Below are positions 17,896-62,882 of a stretch of DNA of 64,000 bases, in pieces. How positions within the stretch are numbered: the stretch's first letter is position 1; each line of letters begins with the position of its first letter. Where the stretch lies: NCBI RefSeq assembly GCF_044324785.1, contig NZ_CP172127.1, one strand, 5' to 3'. A program made the translations under genes and the position numbers. Source of the stretch: Escherichia coli (GTDB lineage: Bacteria > Pseudomonadota > Gammaproteobacteria > Enterobacterales > Enterobacteriaceae). The notes under the pieces are model-generated. The model was given only the letters and a program-made list of their open reading frames with translations. It was not told where the DNA came from and made no database searches.

Positions 17896-18164
17896 TTCAT
17901 CCACAGCTTGTGAATAAAAATAAAAACGCATTGCAATTCAAGCCGGAAAAAATCGTCAAGTGATCGATACGACAAAACGAAATCTTAATTTTTAACTTAT
18001 CTATCAATAGGTTAAAAAAATACTATTCACCGTGCGAAGTTTCTTTGAAATTAAGATTACAGCCTGAGACTGTGGATAACTCTGTTTACAAGAGTTTGTC
18101 AGAGACAACAAAAACCAGCAATAACGCATCGCGTCGCTGTGGATATTTTATTGAGAGAAGAATT

Positions 18165-18240
<76 letters not shown>

Positions 18241-18276
18241 TTGGGTGGTCTGTGCTTTGCAGCACTTTTCAAATTT

Positions 18277-18352
<76 letters not shown>

Positions 18353-18387
18353 TTGGGTGGTCTGTGCTTTTCAGCACTTTCAAATTT

Positions 18388-18463
<76 letters not shown>

Positions 18464-18673
18464 GTACTACTTAATTTTGCTTTCGTAATTTTCGCATTTC
18501 TGCGTCGTTACGGGAGGCGCATTATACGAGAAATCTTTCCCTCTGCAACCCCCCTAAAAAATTTTTTTTGAGTTTTTATCTCAAATGCTGAAATTATCAG
18601 CAAGACGTTCAATTTAGCGTCAAAATCACGCCGCCGCAAGTGGATTACGGCGCTTACGTGACCAGGAAAAATT

Positions 18674-33393: not shown

Positions 33394-33419
33394 ATCAGGC
33401 TCCGGAGAATTGGGGCCGT

Positions 33420-33468
33420 CCCCGGTGAAAAGACGCGTTTGCAGGTCGTCCTGCAAAGCTGATGGTTG
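33420..33468 (-). ncRNA. Guanidine-II (mini-ykkC) riboswitch in the gdx leader
   Basis: Two hairpins with ACGR loops on the minus strand (gcaggACGAcctgc and ggggACGGcccc) just upstream of the gdx RBS and start. Confidence 0.6.
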
Positions 33469-47327: not shown

Positions 47328-47403
47328 GCCCGGATAGCTCAGTCGGTAGAGCAGGGGATTGAAAATCCCCGTGTCCTTGGTTCGATTCCGAGTCCGGGCA
47401 CCA
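47328..47403 (+). tRNA. pheU: tRNA-Phe (GAA)
   Basis: gcccggatagctcagtcggtagagcaggggattgaaaatccccgtgtccttggttcgattccgagtccgggcacca, 76 nt with GAA anticodon; promoter-like ttgacg/tttaat upstream. Confidence 0.92.
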
Positions 47404-48764: not shown

Positions 48765-48849
48765 TTACACTTTGTCCTGAAATTATTCTCACAATCAATA
48801 ACCTTTCCCTCTGATCTTACAGATCAGAGGGATTCCGTTAACTTACAAT

Positions 48850-48889
48850 AAGTGATATTGGTTGTCTGGAGATTTAGGGGGACGGTCTA
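48850..48889. repeat. Solo IS2 left-end-like terminal repeat upstream of rafR
   Basis: aagtgatattggttgtctggagatttagggggacggtcta is near-identical to the terminal repeat of the complete IS2 at 58363-58402, in the same orientation. Confidence 0.5.
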
Positions 48890-55110: not shown

Positions 55111-56505
55111 ATGAATAAGTTACTTTTGGGTTTATCTCTTTTTTTATTACTGGAATACAATGCGTGTGCAGCAAAAACAGGGGGGCTAACGCTTGAACAA
55201 AGAATGGCATTGCTGGAAGAACGCCTGGAAGCTGCAGAAAAAAGGGCGGAAAAAGCAGAAAGAATGTTAAAGAGTTTTGATATAGAACAACATTCTGAAA
55301 TACGTCAAATTAGTTCAGAGCAGAATAAAAAAGATGCTAACAGCTATGCAGTAGTTGAGTCAACAAAAGAAAAAACATCTTCTCCAGGTTTTCTGCTCTC
55401 TGGTTACAATGATTTGAAGTTTTATGGTGATGTGGAGTTTAATATAGATGCTGCCAGTAAACCCGGTCAGTTAGTAATGATAAGTTCCGGGGCGAACAGT
55501 GAGTCAGTGAATGAACGGTGGGACCTTAATGGCCGTATTCTATTAGGTTTTGACGGTACCCGTAAGCTTGATAATGGTTATTTCGCTGGATTTTCAGCAC
55601 AACCACTGGCGGATATGCACGGTTCAGTGAATATTGATGATGCATTATTCTTTTTTGGAAAAGATGACGAGTGGAAAGTGAAAGTCGGTCGTTTTGAAGC
55701 TTACGATATGTTCCCTCTAAATCAGGATACTTTCATTGAGTATTCCGGTAATACAGCTAATGATATTTATGCTGATGGCCGTGGTTATATCTATATGATG
55801 AAAGAGGGACGCGGTCGTTCTGACGCTGGTGGTAATTTCCTCATCAGTAAACAACTCGATAACTGGTATTTTGAGTTAAACACGTTACTTGAAGACGGAA
55901 CATCTTTATATAATAACGGTAATTATCATGGACGATATATGGAGCAGCAGAAAAATGTCGCTTATCTGCGCCCGGTAATTGCCTGGTCGCCAACGGAAGA
56001 ATTCACAGTCTCCGCAGCGATGGAAGCGAACGTGGTAAAAAATGCTTATGGCTATACCGATAATAAGGGGAATTTTGTCGATCAGTCCAATCGTTCCGGT
56101 TATGGTATTAGCATGACATGGAACGGTCTGAAAACAGATCCGGAAAATGGCATCGTGGTTACTCTTAATACCGCCTATTTGGATGCCAGTAATGAGAAAG
56201 ATTTCACTGCCAGTATTAATGCTCTGTGGAAACGTTTCGAACTGGGTTATATCTACGCACATAATAAGATTGATGAATTTAGTGGTGTCGTGTGTAATAA
56301 TGGTTGCTGGATTGATGGTGAAGGAATATACAACATTCACACCATTCATGCATCTTATCAGTTTGCTAATGTGATGGATATGGAGAACTTTAATATTTAC
56401 CTCGGGGCTTATTACTCAATTCTGGATAGTAACTGTAGATATAGTAATTGTGACATTACCGATGATCGTTACGGTGCCCGATTACGTTTCAAATACTTTT
56501 TTTGA
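55111..56505 (+). CDS. rafY: Raffinose glycoporin RafY
   Basis: 464-aa protein with signal peptide, N-terminal coiled-coil (LEERLEAAEKRAEKAERMLK) and beta-rich body ending in an aromatic residue (RFKYFF), typical of outer-membrane porins. Confidence 0.8.
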   Translation: MNKLLLGLSLFLLLEYNACAAKTGGLTLEQRMALLEERLEAAEKRAEKAERMLKSFDIEQHSEIRQISSEQNKKDANSYAVVESTKEKTSSPGFLLSGYNDLKFYGDVEFNIDAASKPGQLVMISSGANSESVNERWDLNGRILLGFDGTRKLDNGYFAGFSAQPLADMHGSVNIDDALFFFGKDDEWKVKVGRFEAYDMFPLNQDTFIEYSGNTANDIYADGRGYIYMMKEGRGRSDAGGNFLISKQLDNWYFELNTLLEDGTSLYNNGNYHGRYMEQQKNVAYLRPVIAWSPTEEFTVSAAMEANVVKNAYGYTDNKGNFVDQSNRSGYGISMTWNGLKTDPENGIVVTLNTAYLDASNEKDFTASINALWKRFELGYIYAHNKIDEFSGVVCNNGCWIDGEGIYNIHTIHASYQFANVMDMENFNIYLGAYYSILDSNCRYSNCDITDDRYGARLRFKYFF

Positions 56506-57005
56506 TGCATAGTAACAAAGTATTGTTCCACACTTACATTAACGCGTTTTTCGGGCGCGTCATCAGCGATGCATACGAATGATCGCAGTCTGCCAATGGT
56601 CGATTTATCTTGGTTGCGCAGGGGCGAGCACCGGGCAGGTACCGGCGGCTGACTCTGAAGCTCTGAGTCGGGTAATTGCGTCAGGTCACGAAGGACTGAC
56701 ACGGGTATTGGTGGCAGGTGATGAAGTACTGAGTGTGGTAATTTCGGGGATGCAATGCAGGAGCTGAGTCAGGTTTGCACTGAGCTGAGGACCCGTAGCG
56801 AGCGGGTTCCTGCTATTTTTCGGTGTCAGGGGCGCAAGTCCCGACGTCGGGACTTGCCGGGAGATTGTCAGGTCATTGACCGGGTGTGAGCGGCTCGACG
56901 TAAGCGGTAGATATGCCCAATTCCCCCCGATAAATTCATTACCAAACACATTATTCAATTTGTTTTTATTTTTCCGCTTTCAGTCATTATCGCTATCGCT
57001 TCGTC

Positions 57006-57071
57006 GGTAATGACTCCAACTTATTGATAGTGTTTTATGTTCAGATAATGCCCGATGACTTTGTCATGCAG
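57006..57071. mobile_element. IS1 terminal fragment (66 bp), truncated by the IS2 insertion
   Basis: ggtaatgactccaacttattgatagtgttttatgttcagataatgcccgatgactttgtcatgcag is identical to the first 66 bp of the complete IS1 at 59354; it abuts the IS2 end directly. Confidence 0.8.
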
Positions 57072-57082
57072 TGGATTTGCCC

Positions 57083-57988
57083 CTATATTTCCAGACACCT
57101 GTTATCACTTAACCCATTACTGGTCCGCTGCCGCAGATATTCCCGTGGCGAGCGATAACCCAGCGCACTATGCGGATGCCATTCGTTATAATGCTCGAAC
57201 GCCTCTGCAAGGTTCTTTGCTGCCGTTAACCCGTCTGGTTTGGGCATGATACTGATGTAGTCACGCTTTATCGTTTTCACGAAGCTCTCTGCTATTCCGT
57301 TACTCTCCGGACTCCGCACCGCCGTGTTCTTCGGTTCAAGTCCCAACATCCGGGCGAACTGGCGTGTTTCATTAGCCCGGTAGCATGAACCATTATCCGT
57401 CAGCCACTCCACTGGAGACGACGGAAGATCGTTGCCGAAGCGGCGTTCCACCGCTCCTGGCATGACGTCCTGTACTGTTTCACTGTTGAAGCCGCCGGTA
57501 GTGACCGCCCAGTGCAGTGCCTCACGATCACAGCAGTCCAGCGCGAACGTGACACGCAGTCTCTCTCCGTTATCACAGCAGAACTCGAACCCGTCAGAGC
57601 ACCATCGCTGATTGCTTTCTTTCACGGCCACTCTGCCAGTATGTGCCCGTTTCGATGGCGGTACAGCGGTTTTTCGCTCAAGCAACAGCGCATTCTGGCG
57701 CATGATCCGGTAAACACGTTTGGCATTGATCGCAGGCATACCATCAAGTTCGGCCTGTCTGCGAAGCAGCGCCCATACCCGACGATAACCATACGTGGGC
57801 AGCTCTCCGATAACATGGTGTATACGGAGAAGCACATCCGTATCATCTGAGTGACGGCTGCGGCGACCATCTTTCCAGTCATCGGTTCGTCTGAGAATTA
57901 CGTGCAACTGCGCACGCGACACCCGGAGACAACGGCTGACTAAGCTTACTCCCCATCCCCGGGCAATAAGGGCGCGTGCGCTATCCAC
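57083..57988 (-). CDS. insD: IS2 transposase OrfB (InsD)
   Basis: 301-aa DDE transposase [30 protein letters not shown]. Confidence 0.92.
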
Positions 57989-58311
57989 TTTTTTGCACGC
58001 CCGTATTCAACGGCTTCTTTAAGGAGTTCATTTTCCATCGTTTTTTTGCCGAGCAGGCGCTGGAGTTCTTTAATCTGCTTCATGGCAGCAGCAAGTTCAG
58101 AGGCAGGAACGACCTGCTCTCCTGCGGCCACAGCAGTAAGACTTCCCTCCTGGTATTGCTTGCGCCAGAGAAATAACTGGCTGGCTGCCACACCGTGTTG
58201 CCGGGCAACAAGGGAGACCGTCATTCCCGGTTCAAAACTCTGCTGAACAATAGCGATCTTTTCCTGTGTAGTACGCCGTCTGCGTTTCTCCGGTCCTAAG
58301 ACATCAATCAT
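57946..58311 (-). CDS. insC: IS2 OrfA (InsC)
   Basis: Start [43 protein letters not shown] protein; 3' end overlaps insD in the programmed frameshift arrangement. Confidence 0.9.
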
Positions 58312-58562
58312 CTGCTCTCCAATGACTAGTCTAAAAACTAGTATTAAGACTATCACTTATTTAAGTGATATTGGTTGTCTGGAGATTCATGGGGCCAGTC
58401 TAGCAGATTATGGTGCGCAGTTATACAACAGCAGTAATGAGGAGTCTACTATTTCTCTTGTTATGCCAGATGCAATTGAATGGAACGGAAAGAATACGCC
58501 AAGACGGCAATACATGATAAAATATATTGCCGTATTTAAATATTAAAATTTATTTTTGTAGA

Positions 58563-58952
58563 TCATCTGAATTTTCGGTGACCTTCAAGTTTTATATCGT
58601 TCATTTTATCCAGAGACTCACGTAATGATTCTATATTCCCGTCCTCAACTTTCTTTTTTGCAATATTGATTTCATGTTGTAGTTTTTTTAACTCTTCCTT
58701 ATAACTATCTACAGAAACTTTATCATTAACATCTATCTTTTCAGGAATAATATTCATAGAAGAATCTACAGATTTATCCATCATTTCAAGAGCATTTAAT
58801 AGTGATGATTTATCATTGGAAGATTGTAGAATACTCATACTTTTGGCAAGAGACTGCATGTTTTTATCCAGGCCGGAAGCCAAAGATACGTTGCTGAGAG
58901 ATAAAAAAATAGCTAGTACAGCACCTGAGAAAAATACCTTTTGTTTTTTCAT
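58563..58952 (-). CDS. Secreted cytochrome b562-like four-helix-bundle protein (divergent CybC homolog)
   Basis: Start MKKQKVFFSGAVLAIFLSLSNVSLA (signal peptide); mature region aligns with cytochrome b562 including the Met heme ligand (SGLDKNM vs ADLEDNM) and C-terminal His (LEGHRKFR vs NAYHQKYR). Confidence 0.6.
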   Translation of the reverse strand: MKKQKVFFSGAVLAIFLSLSNVSLASGLDKNMQSLAKSMSILQSSNDKSSLLNALEMMDKSVDSSMNIIPEKIDVNDKVSVDSYKEELKKLQHEINIAKKKVEDGNIESLRESLDKMNDIKLEGHRKFR

Positions 58953-59368
58953 TAATATATTCCTGTTCAAAGTTGATTATAGTTATGTCAATTTAAGTTT
59001 ATTATTATGATTTTTTATTTTTGTACTATGAATCTCCTGTATGCTTATATGTGCAGAAAATCTCATTTTATCAAGAAGAATATCAAATTTTCTCCGATAC
59101 TTCTACATACTCCATCATTCATGCTCCTTTTATCCGTGCACCGTAAAACCCCGTCCTTCAGCGGGGGATATAAGGCGCTGTTTTCCACCTAACCAGGTGT
59201 CTGCTGCTATTCAATGTATTGGCGGATGACGGATGCCGCCCGTTGAAGCAGGACCCCTCGTCCTTAGGGCGTGGAGGATGTCAAAATGAAAACTTGTGGT
59301 ATGAATCAATCCATTCATCATCCTTTCGGATCATTGCATTCAGTATAACGCTGGGTAATGACTCCAAC

Positions 59369-59872
59369 TTATTGATAGTGTTTTATGTTCAGATAATGCC
59401 CGATGACTTTGTCATGCAGCTCCACCGATTTTGAGAACGACAGCGACTTCCGTCCCAGCCGTGCCAGGTGCTGCCTCAGATTCAGGTTATGCCGCTCAAT
59501 TCGCTGCGTATATCGCTTGCTGATTACGTGCAGCTTTCCCTTCAGGCGGGATTCATACAGCGGCCAGCCATCCGTCATCCATATCACCACGTCAAAGGGT
59601 GACAGCAGGCTCATAAGACGCCCCAGCGTCGCCATAGTGCGTTCACCGAATACGTGCGCAACAACCGTCTTCCGGAGACTGTCATACGCGTAAAACAGCC
59701 AGCGCTGGCGCGATTTAGCCCCGACATAGCCCCACTGTTCGTCCATTTCCGCGCAGACGATGACGTCACTGCCCGGCTGTATGCGCGAGGTTACCGACTG
59801 CGGCCTGAGTTTTTTAAGTGACGTAAAATCGTGTTGAGGCCAACGCCCATAATGCGTGCACTGGCACGACAT
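59369..59872 (-). CDS. insB: IS1 InsB
   Basis: 167 aa, [37 protein letters not shown]. Confidence 0.92.
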
Positions 59873-60066
59873 CCGACGCCATTCATGGCCATATCAATGA
59901 TTTTCTGGTGCGTACCGGGTTGAGAGGCGGTGTAAGTGAACTGTAGTTGCCATGTTTTACGGCAATGAGAGCAGAGATAGCGCTGATGTCCGGCAGTGCT
60001 TTTGCCGTTACGCACCACGCCTTCAGGAGCGGAGCAGGAAGGACATCTGATGGAAATGGAAGCCAC
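59791..60066 (-). CDS. insA: IS1 InsA
   Basis: 91 aa, [40 protein letters not shown]. Confidence 0.92.
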
Positions 60067-60329
60067 GCAAGCACCTTAAAATCACCATCATACACTAAAT
60101 CAGTAAGTTGGCACCATTACCTGACCAAGCTTCCTCTATTGCGGCACCTGATTGCATCAATATCGAAAGTGATAAGATCCTCTCACTAGCAGGGCATGAC
60201 AAGTGTAACTGCTGATTTGTTAGCCTGTTTTAAGTTTTTTAAGATCAATTATTTCTCATTTTTTGACTTTATTGCTAGCCGTGAAAATGCAAAGCCTATA
60301 GGATACAAAAATTACAATTTGTAGGTTTT

Positions 60330-60836
60330 GTGAGTCATATGAAGGCAACCAATATAGACCCTCAACTGCTTGAAAAAGCCACGAGTATCTTTGCTGAGTT
60401 GGGCTTACCTATTGAGCAGGCTATTAACGTCTTTTTAGCTAAATCCGTTCAAGCCAAAGGTTTTCCGTTTTCTGTTGCTCTTGAAAATGAAGTAGAGACA
60501 CGGGAAGTTGCACAAACGCAACACAATATCAGCAATGCAGAGATAACCGAAGCTATCCAAGACTTGGTTGAACATGCTCTACCACTGAGTGAAATAGAAA
60601 ACCTCACGCAGCTAACCTATTGTCGCAACATTTTTGGGTTGTCATTCCCCGTGCTCAAACTGGCTAAATCATCACGGCCAGAAGACATTCGCAGTGCAGC
60701 CAAAGATGCCAAAGAGCGAAACCGCTACTCCACCACTAAAGTGGCCCAGCGAGATGAAAAAACCTATGTTATTTGCACCCAATGGACCGACAGACATCGT
60801 TCTGCATTTTGCCGTTGGCAAGCCATCTTTAGCTAG
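60330..60836 (+). CDS. RelB/DinJ-like ribbon-helix-helix protein with an uncharacterised C-terminal extension
   Basis: N-terminal 50 aa (KATNIDPQLLEKATSIFAELGLPIEQAINVFLAKSVQAKGFPFSV) follow the DinJ pattern; the remaining 110 aa or so are unassigned; alternative ATG start at 60339; AT-rich; no toxin gene adjacent. Confidence 0.5.
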   Translation: MSHMKATNIDPQLLEKATSIFAELGLPIEQAINVFLAKSVQAKGFPFSVALENEVETREVAQTQHNISNAEITEAIQDLVEHALPLSEIENLTQLTYCRNIFGLSFPVLKLAKSSRPEDIRSAAKDAKERNRYSTTKVAQRDEKTYVICTQWTDRHRSAFCRWQAIFS

Positions 60837-60902
60837 AACGCAAAATAATAACCAAACAATACACTGATTTTTTAACGATTTAACTTCATTTAGGTAGTAT
60901 CA

Positions 60903-62882
60903 ATGAACTTACAAGACAAAGAACAAAGCGCCAAACTCTCCAGTGCTATTTGGCGTATGGCAGATGATTTATGGGGTGATTTCAAACACACCGATTTTGC
61001 GCGGATTATCCTGCCATTTTTGCTACTGCGTCGTATTGAATGCGTGTTAGAACCCACCCGTGAGGAAGTTCGTAAGTTCTATCTGGCCGAAAAACAATCC
61101 GGCATAGACCTTGGTTTAGTGTTGCCAGAAATTGCGGGATTCGCCTTTTACAACACCAGTGAATATAGCCTAGAAACCTTAGGCGCGTCAGACACCGGCG
61201 ACAACCTAGAACACTACATCAGCCAGTTCAGCAAAAACGTTCGTACCATCTTTGATGAGTTTAAATTTGGTCAAACCATAGAAGATCTGGAAAAAGCCAA
61301 GTTGCTGTATCGCATGGTAAACCATTTTGCCAACCTCGACTTGCATCCTGATGTAGTGTCTGACCGCGTATTATCAGATGCTTATGAAGAGCTGATTCTA
61401 AAGTTCGCCAGTTCGGTTAATGAAAAGGCCGGGGAATTTATGACCCCGCGTGATGCCGTGCGTCTTGCCACCAAACTGGTGCTGGCGGCGGATGAAGATA
61501 TCTTTAGTGAAAAGGGTGTGATCCGCACCATCTATGACCCAACCTGTGGCACGGGCGGTTTCCTTTCCGATGCCATTAGCCAAATTGAAGAAATGGGCAG
61601 CAGCGCTAAAGTCGTGCCTTTTGGTCAAGAGCTCGACCCCGCGACCCATGCCATGGCGCTGACCAATATGATGATCCGCGGTTTTGATGCCAATAACATC
61701 AAGCAAGGCAACACCTTATCAGACGATCAGTTACGTGCCGACAAGTTTCACTACGGCCTTGCCAACCCGCCATTTGGCATTAAGTGGGAAAAAGCCAAGA
61801 AAGAAGTAGAACGTGAGCACAAACAGCTCAAATACGCCGGACGCTTTGGGCCAGGCCTGCCGAGTATTTCTGATGGTTCAATGCTGTTTTTACTGCACTT
61901 GGTATCAAAAATGGAAACGCCGGAAAATGGTGGTGGCCGAGTGGGTATAGTCCTTTCTGGCTCGCCACTGTTTAATGGCGATGCAGGCTCAGGCCCATCA
62001 GAAATCCGCCGTTGGCTGCTAGAACAAGACTTAGTCGAAGCGATTGTTGCCCTGCCAACCGATATGTTCTTCAACACCGGCATTGGCACCTACATCTGGA
62101 TTTTGACTAACCATAAAGAGCCAAGACGCAAGAATCAGGTGCAACTGATTAACTTGGCAGATATTTGGACTCCCATGCGTAAATCGCAAGGCGATAAGCG
62201 CAAGTACCTGAGTGATGAACAGATTGACGATATTGTCCGTGCGTACGATGGCTTTGAAGCCAGTGACAACTGTAAGATCTTCCAGACTACTGATTTTGCC
62301 TACCGTAAAGTCACCATTCAGCGTCCACTGCGTGCCAAACTAGATATTACCGCTGCGGGCATTGCTGCATTTGTGCAGCAAGATACGTTTAAAAAACTCA
62401 AACCAGAGCAACAAGCGGCATGGGTACAATACCTCACCGATAACCTTGGCCTTCAGCCTTATGAATGGGCACGTTTGGCGGTTAAGAAGAATAACAATAA
62501 GGGTGACTTTGGTAAGTGCTCAAAAGCACTGGCTACGGCCTTAACTGCGCACTTTGTAAAAATTGATCCGCAATTTGAGCCTGCACTGGATGAAAAAGGC
62601 CAAGTGATCGCCGACCCTAAACTCAAAGACACCGAAAGCATTCCTTTTGACCGCGACGTTGAAGATTACTTCGCACAAGAGGTGCTGCCACATGTACCGG
62701 ATGCCTTTATTGATCACTCAGTGCGTGATGAAAAAGACGGCGAAGTGGGCATTGTCGGTTATGAAATTAACTTTAACCGCTATTTCTACCAATACGTGCC
62801 ACCACGCGAGTTGAGTGTGATTGATCGTGAGCTAAAAGCATGTGAAGCGCGCATTCAGGCTCTGCTGAATGAGGTGGCGTAA
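60903..62882 (+). CDS. hsdM: Type I restriction-modification N6-adenine DNA methyltransferase subunit HsdM
   Basis: 659 aa with AdoMet motif YDPTCGTGGFL and catalytic NPPFG; stop overlaps the hsdS start (TAATG). Confidence 0.88.
   Translation: MNLQDKEQSAKLSSAIWRMADDLWGDFKHTDFARIILPFLLLRRIECVLEPTREEVRKFYLAEKQSGIDLGLVLPEIAGFAFYNTSEYSLETLGASDTGDNLEHYISQFSKNVRTIFDEFKFGQTIEDLEKAKLLYRMVNHFANLDLHPDVVSDRVLSDAYEELILKFASSVNEKAGEFMTPRDAVRLATKLVLAADEDIFSEKGVIRTIYDPTCGTGGFLSDAISQIEEMGSSAKVVPFGQELDPATHAMALTNMMIRGFDANNIKQGNTLSDDQLRADKFHYGLANPPFGIKWEKAKKEVEREHKQLKYAGRFGPGLPSISDGSMLFLLHLVSKMETPENGGGRVGIVLSGSPLFNGDAGSGPSEIRRWLLEQDLVEAIVALPTDMFFNTGIGTYIWILTNHKEPRRKNQVQLINLADIWTPMRKSQGDKRKYLSDEQIDDIVRAYDGFEASDNCKIFQTTDFAYRKVTIQRPLRAKLDITAAGIAAFVQQDTFKKLKPEQQAAWVQYLTDNLGLQPYEWARLAVKKNNNKGDFGKCSKALATALTAHFVKIDPQFEPALDEKGQVIADPKLKDTESIPFDRDVEDYFAQEVLPHVPDAFIDHSVRDEKDGEVGIVGYEINFNRYFYQYVPPRELSVIDRELKACEARIQALLNEVA

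Follow-up and report, generated by a model that had tools for sequence, protein, structure and literature searches.

How does a complete IS2 come to lie directly against the first 66 bp of an IS1 when the remainder of that IS1 is missing? This arrangement is found between positions 57006 and 58402 of a stretch of Escherichia coli DNA (64,000 nucleotides of contig NZ_CP172127.1, assembly GCF_044324785.1; the whole stretch analyzed is termed the window herein). A sequence-only reading of the window had proposed that IS2 inserted into IS1 and that either an adjacent deletion or recombination between insertion sequences (IS) followed. We therefore describe the anatomy of the locus, the distribution of its two junctions among 5,426 complete E. 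coli genomes, and the SNP types of its IS copies.

The IS1 stub, the nested IS2, and their island

The locus belongs to a pheV-type island with the order tRNA-Phe, integrase, raffinose-type cluster, IS1 stub, IS2, a segment of 951 bp, complete IS1, RelB/DinJ-family gene, and type I restriction-modification genes. The left end of this island, which carries the raf genes and the IS cluster, is marked by the tRNA-Phe gene at 47328-47403. The raffinose-type cluster encodes a LacI-like regulator, an alpha-galactosidase, an MFS permease, a GH32 hydrolase, and a porin whose gene ends at 56505. The features needed below are as follows.

47328..47403, plus strand: tRNA-Phe gene (pheV-type), integration site (ARAGORN, Rfam, RefSeq annotation of an identical genome)
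55111..56505, plus strand: carbohydrate porin gene (RafY-like), last gene of the raffinose-type cluster (ORF list, annotation)
57006..57071, minus strand: IS1 stub, first 66 bp from the IRR end, IS1A type (66/66 identity to 59354-59419)
57072..58402, minus strand: complete IS2 of 1331 bp, running from its IRR end (57072) to its IRL end (58402) (sequence comparison, RefSeq, Pfam)
57072..57633, minus strand: K-12-like IS2 segment, element positions 1-562 (SNP comparison)
57638..58402, minus strand: IS2 segment identical to the cytochrome b562-linked copy of pGF4-A, element positions 567-1331 (SNP comparison)
58322-58546: ORF of 74 codons that starts inside the IS2 IRL and reads into the flank, with a 47-codon non-IS tail in the 951-bp segment
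58403..59353, no strand assigned: 951-bp segment otherwise found mainly on ColV-type plasmids (same sequence beside IS2 on many plasmids)
58563-58952, minus strand: cytochrome b562-family gene, cybC (Pfam Cytochrom_B562 match)
59354..60121, minus strand: complete IS1 of 768 bp, same orientation as the stub (both terminal repeats, Pfam, RefSeq)
60339-60836, plus strand: RelB/DinJ-family antitoxin gene (annotation, Pfam RelB match)
60903-62882, plus strand: type I restriction-modification methylase gene (annotation)

The stub at 57006-57071 comprises IS1 positions 1-66, with the IRR end only, and is cut exactly at the IS2 terminus; as had been claimed from the sequence, these 66 bp are followed directly by IS2, and all 66 are identical to the start of the complete IS1 at 59354-60121. 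Its left flank is CGCTTCGTC. The IS2 starts at 57072 with TGGATTTGCCCC... and ends at 58402 with ...GGGGCCAGTCTA. It has the length (~1.33 kb), the termini, the two ORFs with an A6G site, and the high identity to the reference that are expected of IS2. Its transposase genes (OrfA/OrfAB, 57083-58311) are both intact and contain the A6G site for a −1 frameshift, the motif AAAAAAG lying at element position 409. Pfam matches are HTH_Tnp_1 for OrfA and HTH_21, rve, and rve_3 for OrfB, and in strain 98232, which carries the identical sequence, RefSeq calls an IS2 transposase with programmed frameshift. Compared with IS2A of E. coli K-12 (IS3 family), the element has the same 1331 bp and the same termini (TGGATTTGCC... 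and ...CCAGTCTA), and 1291 of the 1331 positions match (40 differences).

Beyond 58402 the sequence reads GCAGATTATGG... and not CTCCACCG..., the continuation of IS1, so the earlier statement that IS1 does not resume after IS2 is correct. The rest of the stub's IS1 is indeed missing: the IS1 copy further downstream restarts at position 1. That copy, which is complete and oriented like the stub, is separated from the right end of IS2 by 951 bp and was omitted from the earlier description. The 5-bp flanks of IS2 (left, TGCAG; right, GCAGA) likewise do not form a direct repeat, as had been noted. When the same element boundaries were applied to K-12 IS2A as a positive control, a perfect 5-bp duplication (ATTAC/ATTAC) was obtained, and the missing duplication at 57072-58402 is therefore real. 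It is accounted for if the two flanks of this IS2 stem from different insertion events, and it bears on the history of the copy, not on its identity as IS2. Both flanks contain GCAG, offset by one base. Since target duplications of IS2 carry no sequence motif (PMC5009759), the shared GCAG is best read as chance, at about 1 in 256 for that register (a rough estimate, not a computed value).

Several further observations concern the surroundings of the locus. A lone IS2-like IRL end of 41 nt is present at 48849-48889. It is oriented like the IS2 end at 58362-58402, to which it is 90% identical, and precedes the start codon of the gene for the LacI-type raf regulator by ~25 bp, so that the raf genes are bracketed on both sides by IS2-type ends. 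Directly downstream of the porin gene, a 39-nt element (56544-56582) without an Rfam match recurs inverted and ~90% similar directly to the right of IS2 in FXCREC004 (locus L002, 8404-8460), a genome with the same left junction and another right flank (CDI immunity gene and ISEc23). The Rfam scan of 56300-60500 gave no match. The RelB/DinJ-annotated gene at 60339-60836 encodes ~165 residues, with the RelB domain match confined to residues 7-70, and no toxin gene is evident between it and the type I methylase gene at 60903. Elsewhere in the window, three tandem 112-nt repeats at 18163-18497 each match the Rfam tRNA model with 69 bits and correspond to three ordinary minus-strand tRNA genes in tandem, and 33411-33457 on the minus strand matches the guanidine-II (mini-ykkC) riboswitch with 49 bits (gathering score 32). 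A literature search for a described pheV raffinose island gave nothing, and one combining ColV, cytochrome b562, and eitABCD gave general APEC papers only.

Two junctions with separate distributions

The left junction, consisting of the rafY flank, the IS1 stub, and IS2, occurs in 249 of the 5,426 genomes and is chromosomal in all of the matches listed; the constant flank of the stub is the 500 bp located 3' of the RafY-like porin gene. No junction between raf and IS1 was present among the best 5,000 plasmid records. Comparison with strains that carry an intact IS1 at this site, which had been suggested as a check, yielded five genomes (DETEC-C31, TUM18780, TUM18530, EC06, and DSM 103246) in which an uninterrupted IS1 starts at the same base after CGCTTCGTC; the IS1 is complete in the three of them that were inspected. 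The commonest variant of the left junction, making up the majority of the matches listed, is that of strain 746 (locus L007, 9235-10005), which has the IS1 stub, IS2 positions 1-293, and IS1 positions 352-768, all in the same orientation, with IS2 position 293 joined to IS1 position 352 at a 6-bp microhomology (CTGGCG). This structure is what a deletion within a nested IS1::IS2 would leave. The uninterrupted IS1 at the same base and the 746-type remnant that keeps IS1 352-768 together make insertion of IS2 into a complete IS1 at this site well supported, and this part of the sequence-only reading stands.

The intact nested IS1::IS2 was sought with a synthetic probe for its right junction, composed of the last 200 bp of IS2, TGCAG, and IS1 positions 67-266. 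It was not found: the 30 full-coverage matches listed were two-piece matches in which IS2 and IS1 are merely close. As the original right junction is not present in the collection, the 5-bp duplication of the original insertion has never been seen directly.

The right junction has a different distribution. IS2 joined to GCAGATTATGG and the cytochrome b562 gene was found in 128 of the 5,426 genomes, mostly on plasmids of ~125 to 290 kb that include pAPEC-O2-211A-ColV. The junction is identical in the ColV/ColBM-type virulence plasmid region of pAPEC-O2-211A-ColV and pGF4-A; a 600-bp probe across the junction, which covers the IS2 end plus the adjoining 300 bp of fragment sequence, matched such plasmids at 99.5 to 100%, and the 951-bp fragment matched plasmid records at up to 99.7%. 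The junction between IS2 and cybC carries at least five different left flanks: those of the plasmid-type IS2 in pGF4-A, TUM9803, PK8276, and A3176 differ, the IS2 of pAPEC-O2-211A-ColV is truncated on the left, and no IS1 stub is present in any of them. In pAPEC-O2-211A-ColV and pGF4-A the segment runs on into LysR, cytosine permease, and arcC genes. Unlike in these plasmids, where the arrangements are IS2-cybC-LysR-cytosine permease-arcC and IS1A-bacteriocin immunity-eitABCD, only 951 bp are present here, on the chromosome, and this fragment, truncated by IS1, has been joined to raf on one side and to relB/dinJ-hsd on the other. The left and right junctions occur together in only 11 of the 5,426 genomes.

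The exact junction between cybC and IS1 was found in 19 genomes, all of them with a chromosomal location and none with a plasmid one, so that a plasmid segment already integrated into a chromosome, and not a free plasmid, may have been the immediate donor. Plasmid matches to cybC plus IS1A at 81% coverage were rejected, as they have the IS1 on the other side of cybC and thus represent a different arrangement.

The ORF at 58322-58546, annotated as a hypothetical protein on pGF4-A, spans the right junction. Its 47-residue tail gave no Pfam match and retrieved a single protein of 78 residues among 5.8 billion proteins, which is probably the same IS2-flank ORF. With no Pfam domain and no homologue other than itself, the ORF is probably not a real gene. 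Searching with this tail did not recover an uninterrupted plasmid-side IS2 target with the expected GCAGA duplication.

SNP mosaics in IS2 and in the downstream IS1

Within IS2 (element positions counted from 57072), the SNP type changes abruptly. Positions 1-564 show 6 differences from K-12 IS2A, 24 from the IS2 of pGF4-A, and 18 from the raf-type IS2 of FXCREC004, whereas positions 565-1331 (767 bp) show 0 differences from pGF4-A and 34 from K-12 IS2A; the contrast between the left and right parts is significant for both references (Fisher, P = 8e-10 for pGF4-A and 3e-4 for K-12 IS2A). Among the informative sites, the K-12-like states end at 562, and discordance with K-12 begins at 567. Unlike K-12 IS2A, the IS2 of the window is hence a mosaic, with the left 562 bp K-12-like and the right 765 bp of the pGF4-A plasmid type, and its left segment (57072-57633) matches neither the usual IS2 of raf islands nor that of ColV plasmids.

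Other genomes contain different mosaics. Strain 702/18, with the same overall arrangement, has raf-type sites from 27 to 225, is essentially plasmid-type from 270, and is identical to pGF4-A from 567; its IS2 is the simple recombinant. The IS2 of PK8275 is of the raf type at 1-225, of the plasmid type at 270-291, K-12-like at 339-562, and of the plasmid type beyond; it is an intermediate mosaic. Together, the three copies indicate that the arrangement arose by a crossover inside IS2 and that the left part was later overwritten, to differing extents in each lineage, by exchange with another IS2. The left 562 bp in the window are not of the usual raf-island type, and they require the assumption of one or more additional events, either conversion or another crossover.

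These data bear on the choice between deletion and recombination that the sequence-only reading had left open. An IS2-mediated adjacent deletion, in which the IRL end attacks a site further to the right and the IS1 remainder is removed together with all sequence up to GCAGATTATGG, would account for both the missing part of IS1 and the absent 5-bp duplication, and deletions of this kind are common in E. coli (PMC5009759). It is nevertheless very unlikely here, since 128 genomes share this IS2-GCAGATTATGG junction, for the most part on plasmids with unrelated left flanks and no raf-IS1 stub, and the type switch at 562/567 would not result from a deletion beyond the ends of the element; in addition, the cytochrome b562 segment is not annotated in the 9 kb rightward of one common-type raf island. 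The plasmid-shared right junction and the SNP switch favor the recombination half of the earlier proposal, and the deletion half is abandoned.

The downstream element at 59354-60121 has the attributes of a complete IS1: 768 bp, terminal inverted repeats of ~23 bp, and InsA/InsB' with a frameshift (InsA/InsAB' at 59369-60066, with matches to Zn_ribbon_InsA, HTH_Tnp_IS1, and DDE_Tnp_IS1). Its flanks, ATAACGCTG and TGACCAAGC, contain no 8- to 9-bp duplication, which is accounted for if they stem from different insertions. Compared with IS1A and with the isoform beside relB/dinJ in SMS-3-5, this copy is a hybrid of both: positions 1-476 (59354-59829) belong to the IS1A type and positions 504-768 (59857-60121) to a divergent isoform. 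The head differs at a single site (325) from the IS1A beside cybC in pGF4-A, and it is close to that of TUM9803; the tail (504-765) shows no difference from the IS1 next to relB/dinJ in SMS-3-5, which is divergent throughout. The divergent isoform has the RelB/DinJ and methylase genes (60339..62882) as its constant right flank, and 75 genomes contain its junction with relB, among them SMS-3-5, where it lies in a leuX island. The switch point lies elsewhere in related copies (522-573 in PK8275 and 516-522 in EC21Z-147). TUM9803 has the identical junction between cybC and IS1, followed by a pure IS1A and then by ColV-type bacteriocin-immunity and eitDCBA genes, and is likely an intermediate. pGF4-A has 232 bp extra (a LysR fragment) before its IS1A, which is consistent with an earlier IS1-adjacent deletion. 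The downstream IS1 is thus the second recombination joint, and the marks of a hybrid IS, an abrupt switch in SNP type and flanks of different origin, are present in IS2 and IS1 alike.

Could the locus have moved, or still move, as a unit? That 57006-60121 (3,116 bp), with its correctly oriented IS1 ends and intact IS1 transposase, might behave as an oversized IS1 that mobilizes IS2 and the cytochrome b562 gene as cargo, and that, generally, short IS stubs might provide portable homology for the capture of plasmid genes by islands, we regard as highly improbable. Composite transposition in one piece, either of IS2-cybC-IS1 or of the 3.1 kb from the IRR of the stub to the IRL of the downstream IS1, is also highly improbable, even with the IRR (57006) and IRL (60121) correctly oriented around an intact IS1 transposase gene. 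No 8- to 9-bp duplication surrounds 57006 and 60121 (CGCTTCGTC versus TGACCAAGC), the left boundary base is common to 249 genomes without the rest of the unit, and the right boundary is common to 75 genomes with other left sides. The 3.1-kb unit was found in no second context among the 5,426 genomes, whereas IS2-cybC-IS1-relB exists elsewhere without the stub; tested as a compound transposon (an IS pair of the same kind, a target duplication, and more than one context), the locus does not qualify. A mis-join of repeats during assembly, conceivable for multicopy elements such as IS1 and IS2, for which repeat-induced mis-assemblies are known, has a negligible chance of being the explanation, given that the full 4.5-kb arrangement is shared, at 99.5 to 100% identity, by 11 complete genomes that are independent of one another and represent several countries and hosts, with junctions at exact IS termini and variants that differ by discrete SNP mosaics.

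Proposed history of the locus

The structure of the locus, the differing distributions of its junctions, and the SNP mosaics point to a nested insertion of some age, after which IS copies recombined homologously, a reading to which we assign a probability of roughly 80%. In the order of events that we infer, an IS1 would have resided at the right edge of the raffinose-gene segment in the pheV island, and an IS2 would have transposed into it between positions 66 and 67; the original right junction is expected to have read ...CCAGTCTA joined to TGCAGCTCCACCG, with a TGCAG duplication. The nested IS2 would then have recombined, presumably by homologous recombination of the RecA type, with the IS2 beside the cytochrome b562 gene on a ColV-type plasmid, the putative donor, or in a copy of that plasmid region integrated into a chromosome. 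Before or after this exchange, the IS1A that flanks the cytochrome b562 gene on its opposite side would have recombined with the divergent IS1 adjoining relB/dinJ and the type I restriction-modification module. The product would be raf, the IS1 stub, a hybrid IS2, the 951-bp plasmid-type fragment, a hybrid IS1, and relB/dinJ-hsd; the remaining, distal 702 bp of the first IS1, along with the sequence beyond, would have been either lost or moved elsewhere. The left 562 bp of IS2 may later have been overwritten through one more exchange, or through gene conversion, with a K-12-like IS2. No reciprocal recombination product was identifiable from the annotation in the remaining 47 kb of the strain 98232 island, which is dense in IS fragments.

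Homologous recombination between IS copies, mainly of IS1, IS2, IS5, and IS186, is frequent in E. coli and has been measured directly in mutation-accumulation lines (PMC5009759). In that study by Lee et al. (2016), it gave rise to deletions, inversions, and junction swaps, and the flanks of an element came from two insertions, as is the case here. Those events took place within one laboratory genome, whereas here the exchange appears to have involved an island, a plasmid-type region, and another island module, and the crossover is evident from SNPs at both joints.

The elements, and the process inferred from them, are already known, and the locus is an ordinary mobile-element scar, not a new system. 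Its significance beyond correct annotation is small, and it opens no new question. It provides an SNP-resolved example of how nested and recombinant IS join three sources (a raffinose gene segment, a plasmid-type DNA fragment, and a restriction-modification/antitoxin module) into one pheV island. The recombinant history explains why the target duplication is absent from both IS and cautions against taking such junctions for single transposition or deletion events.
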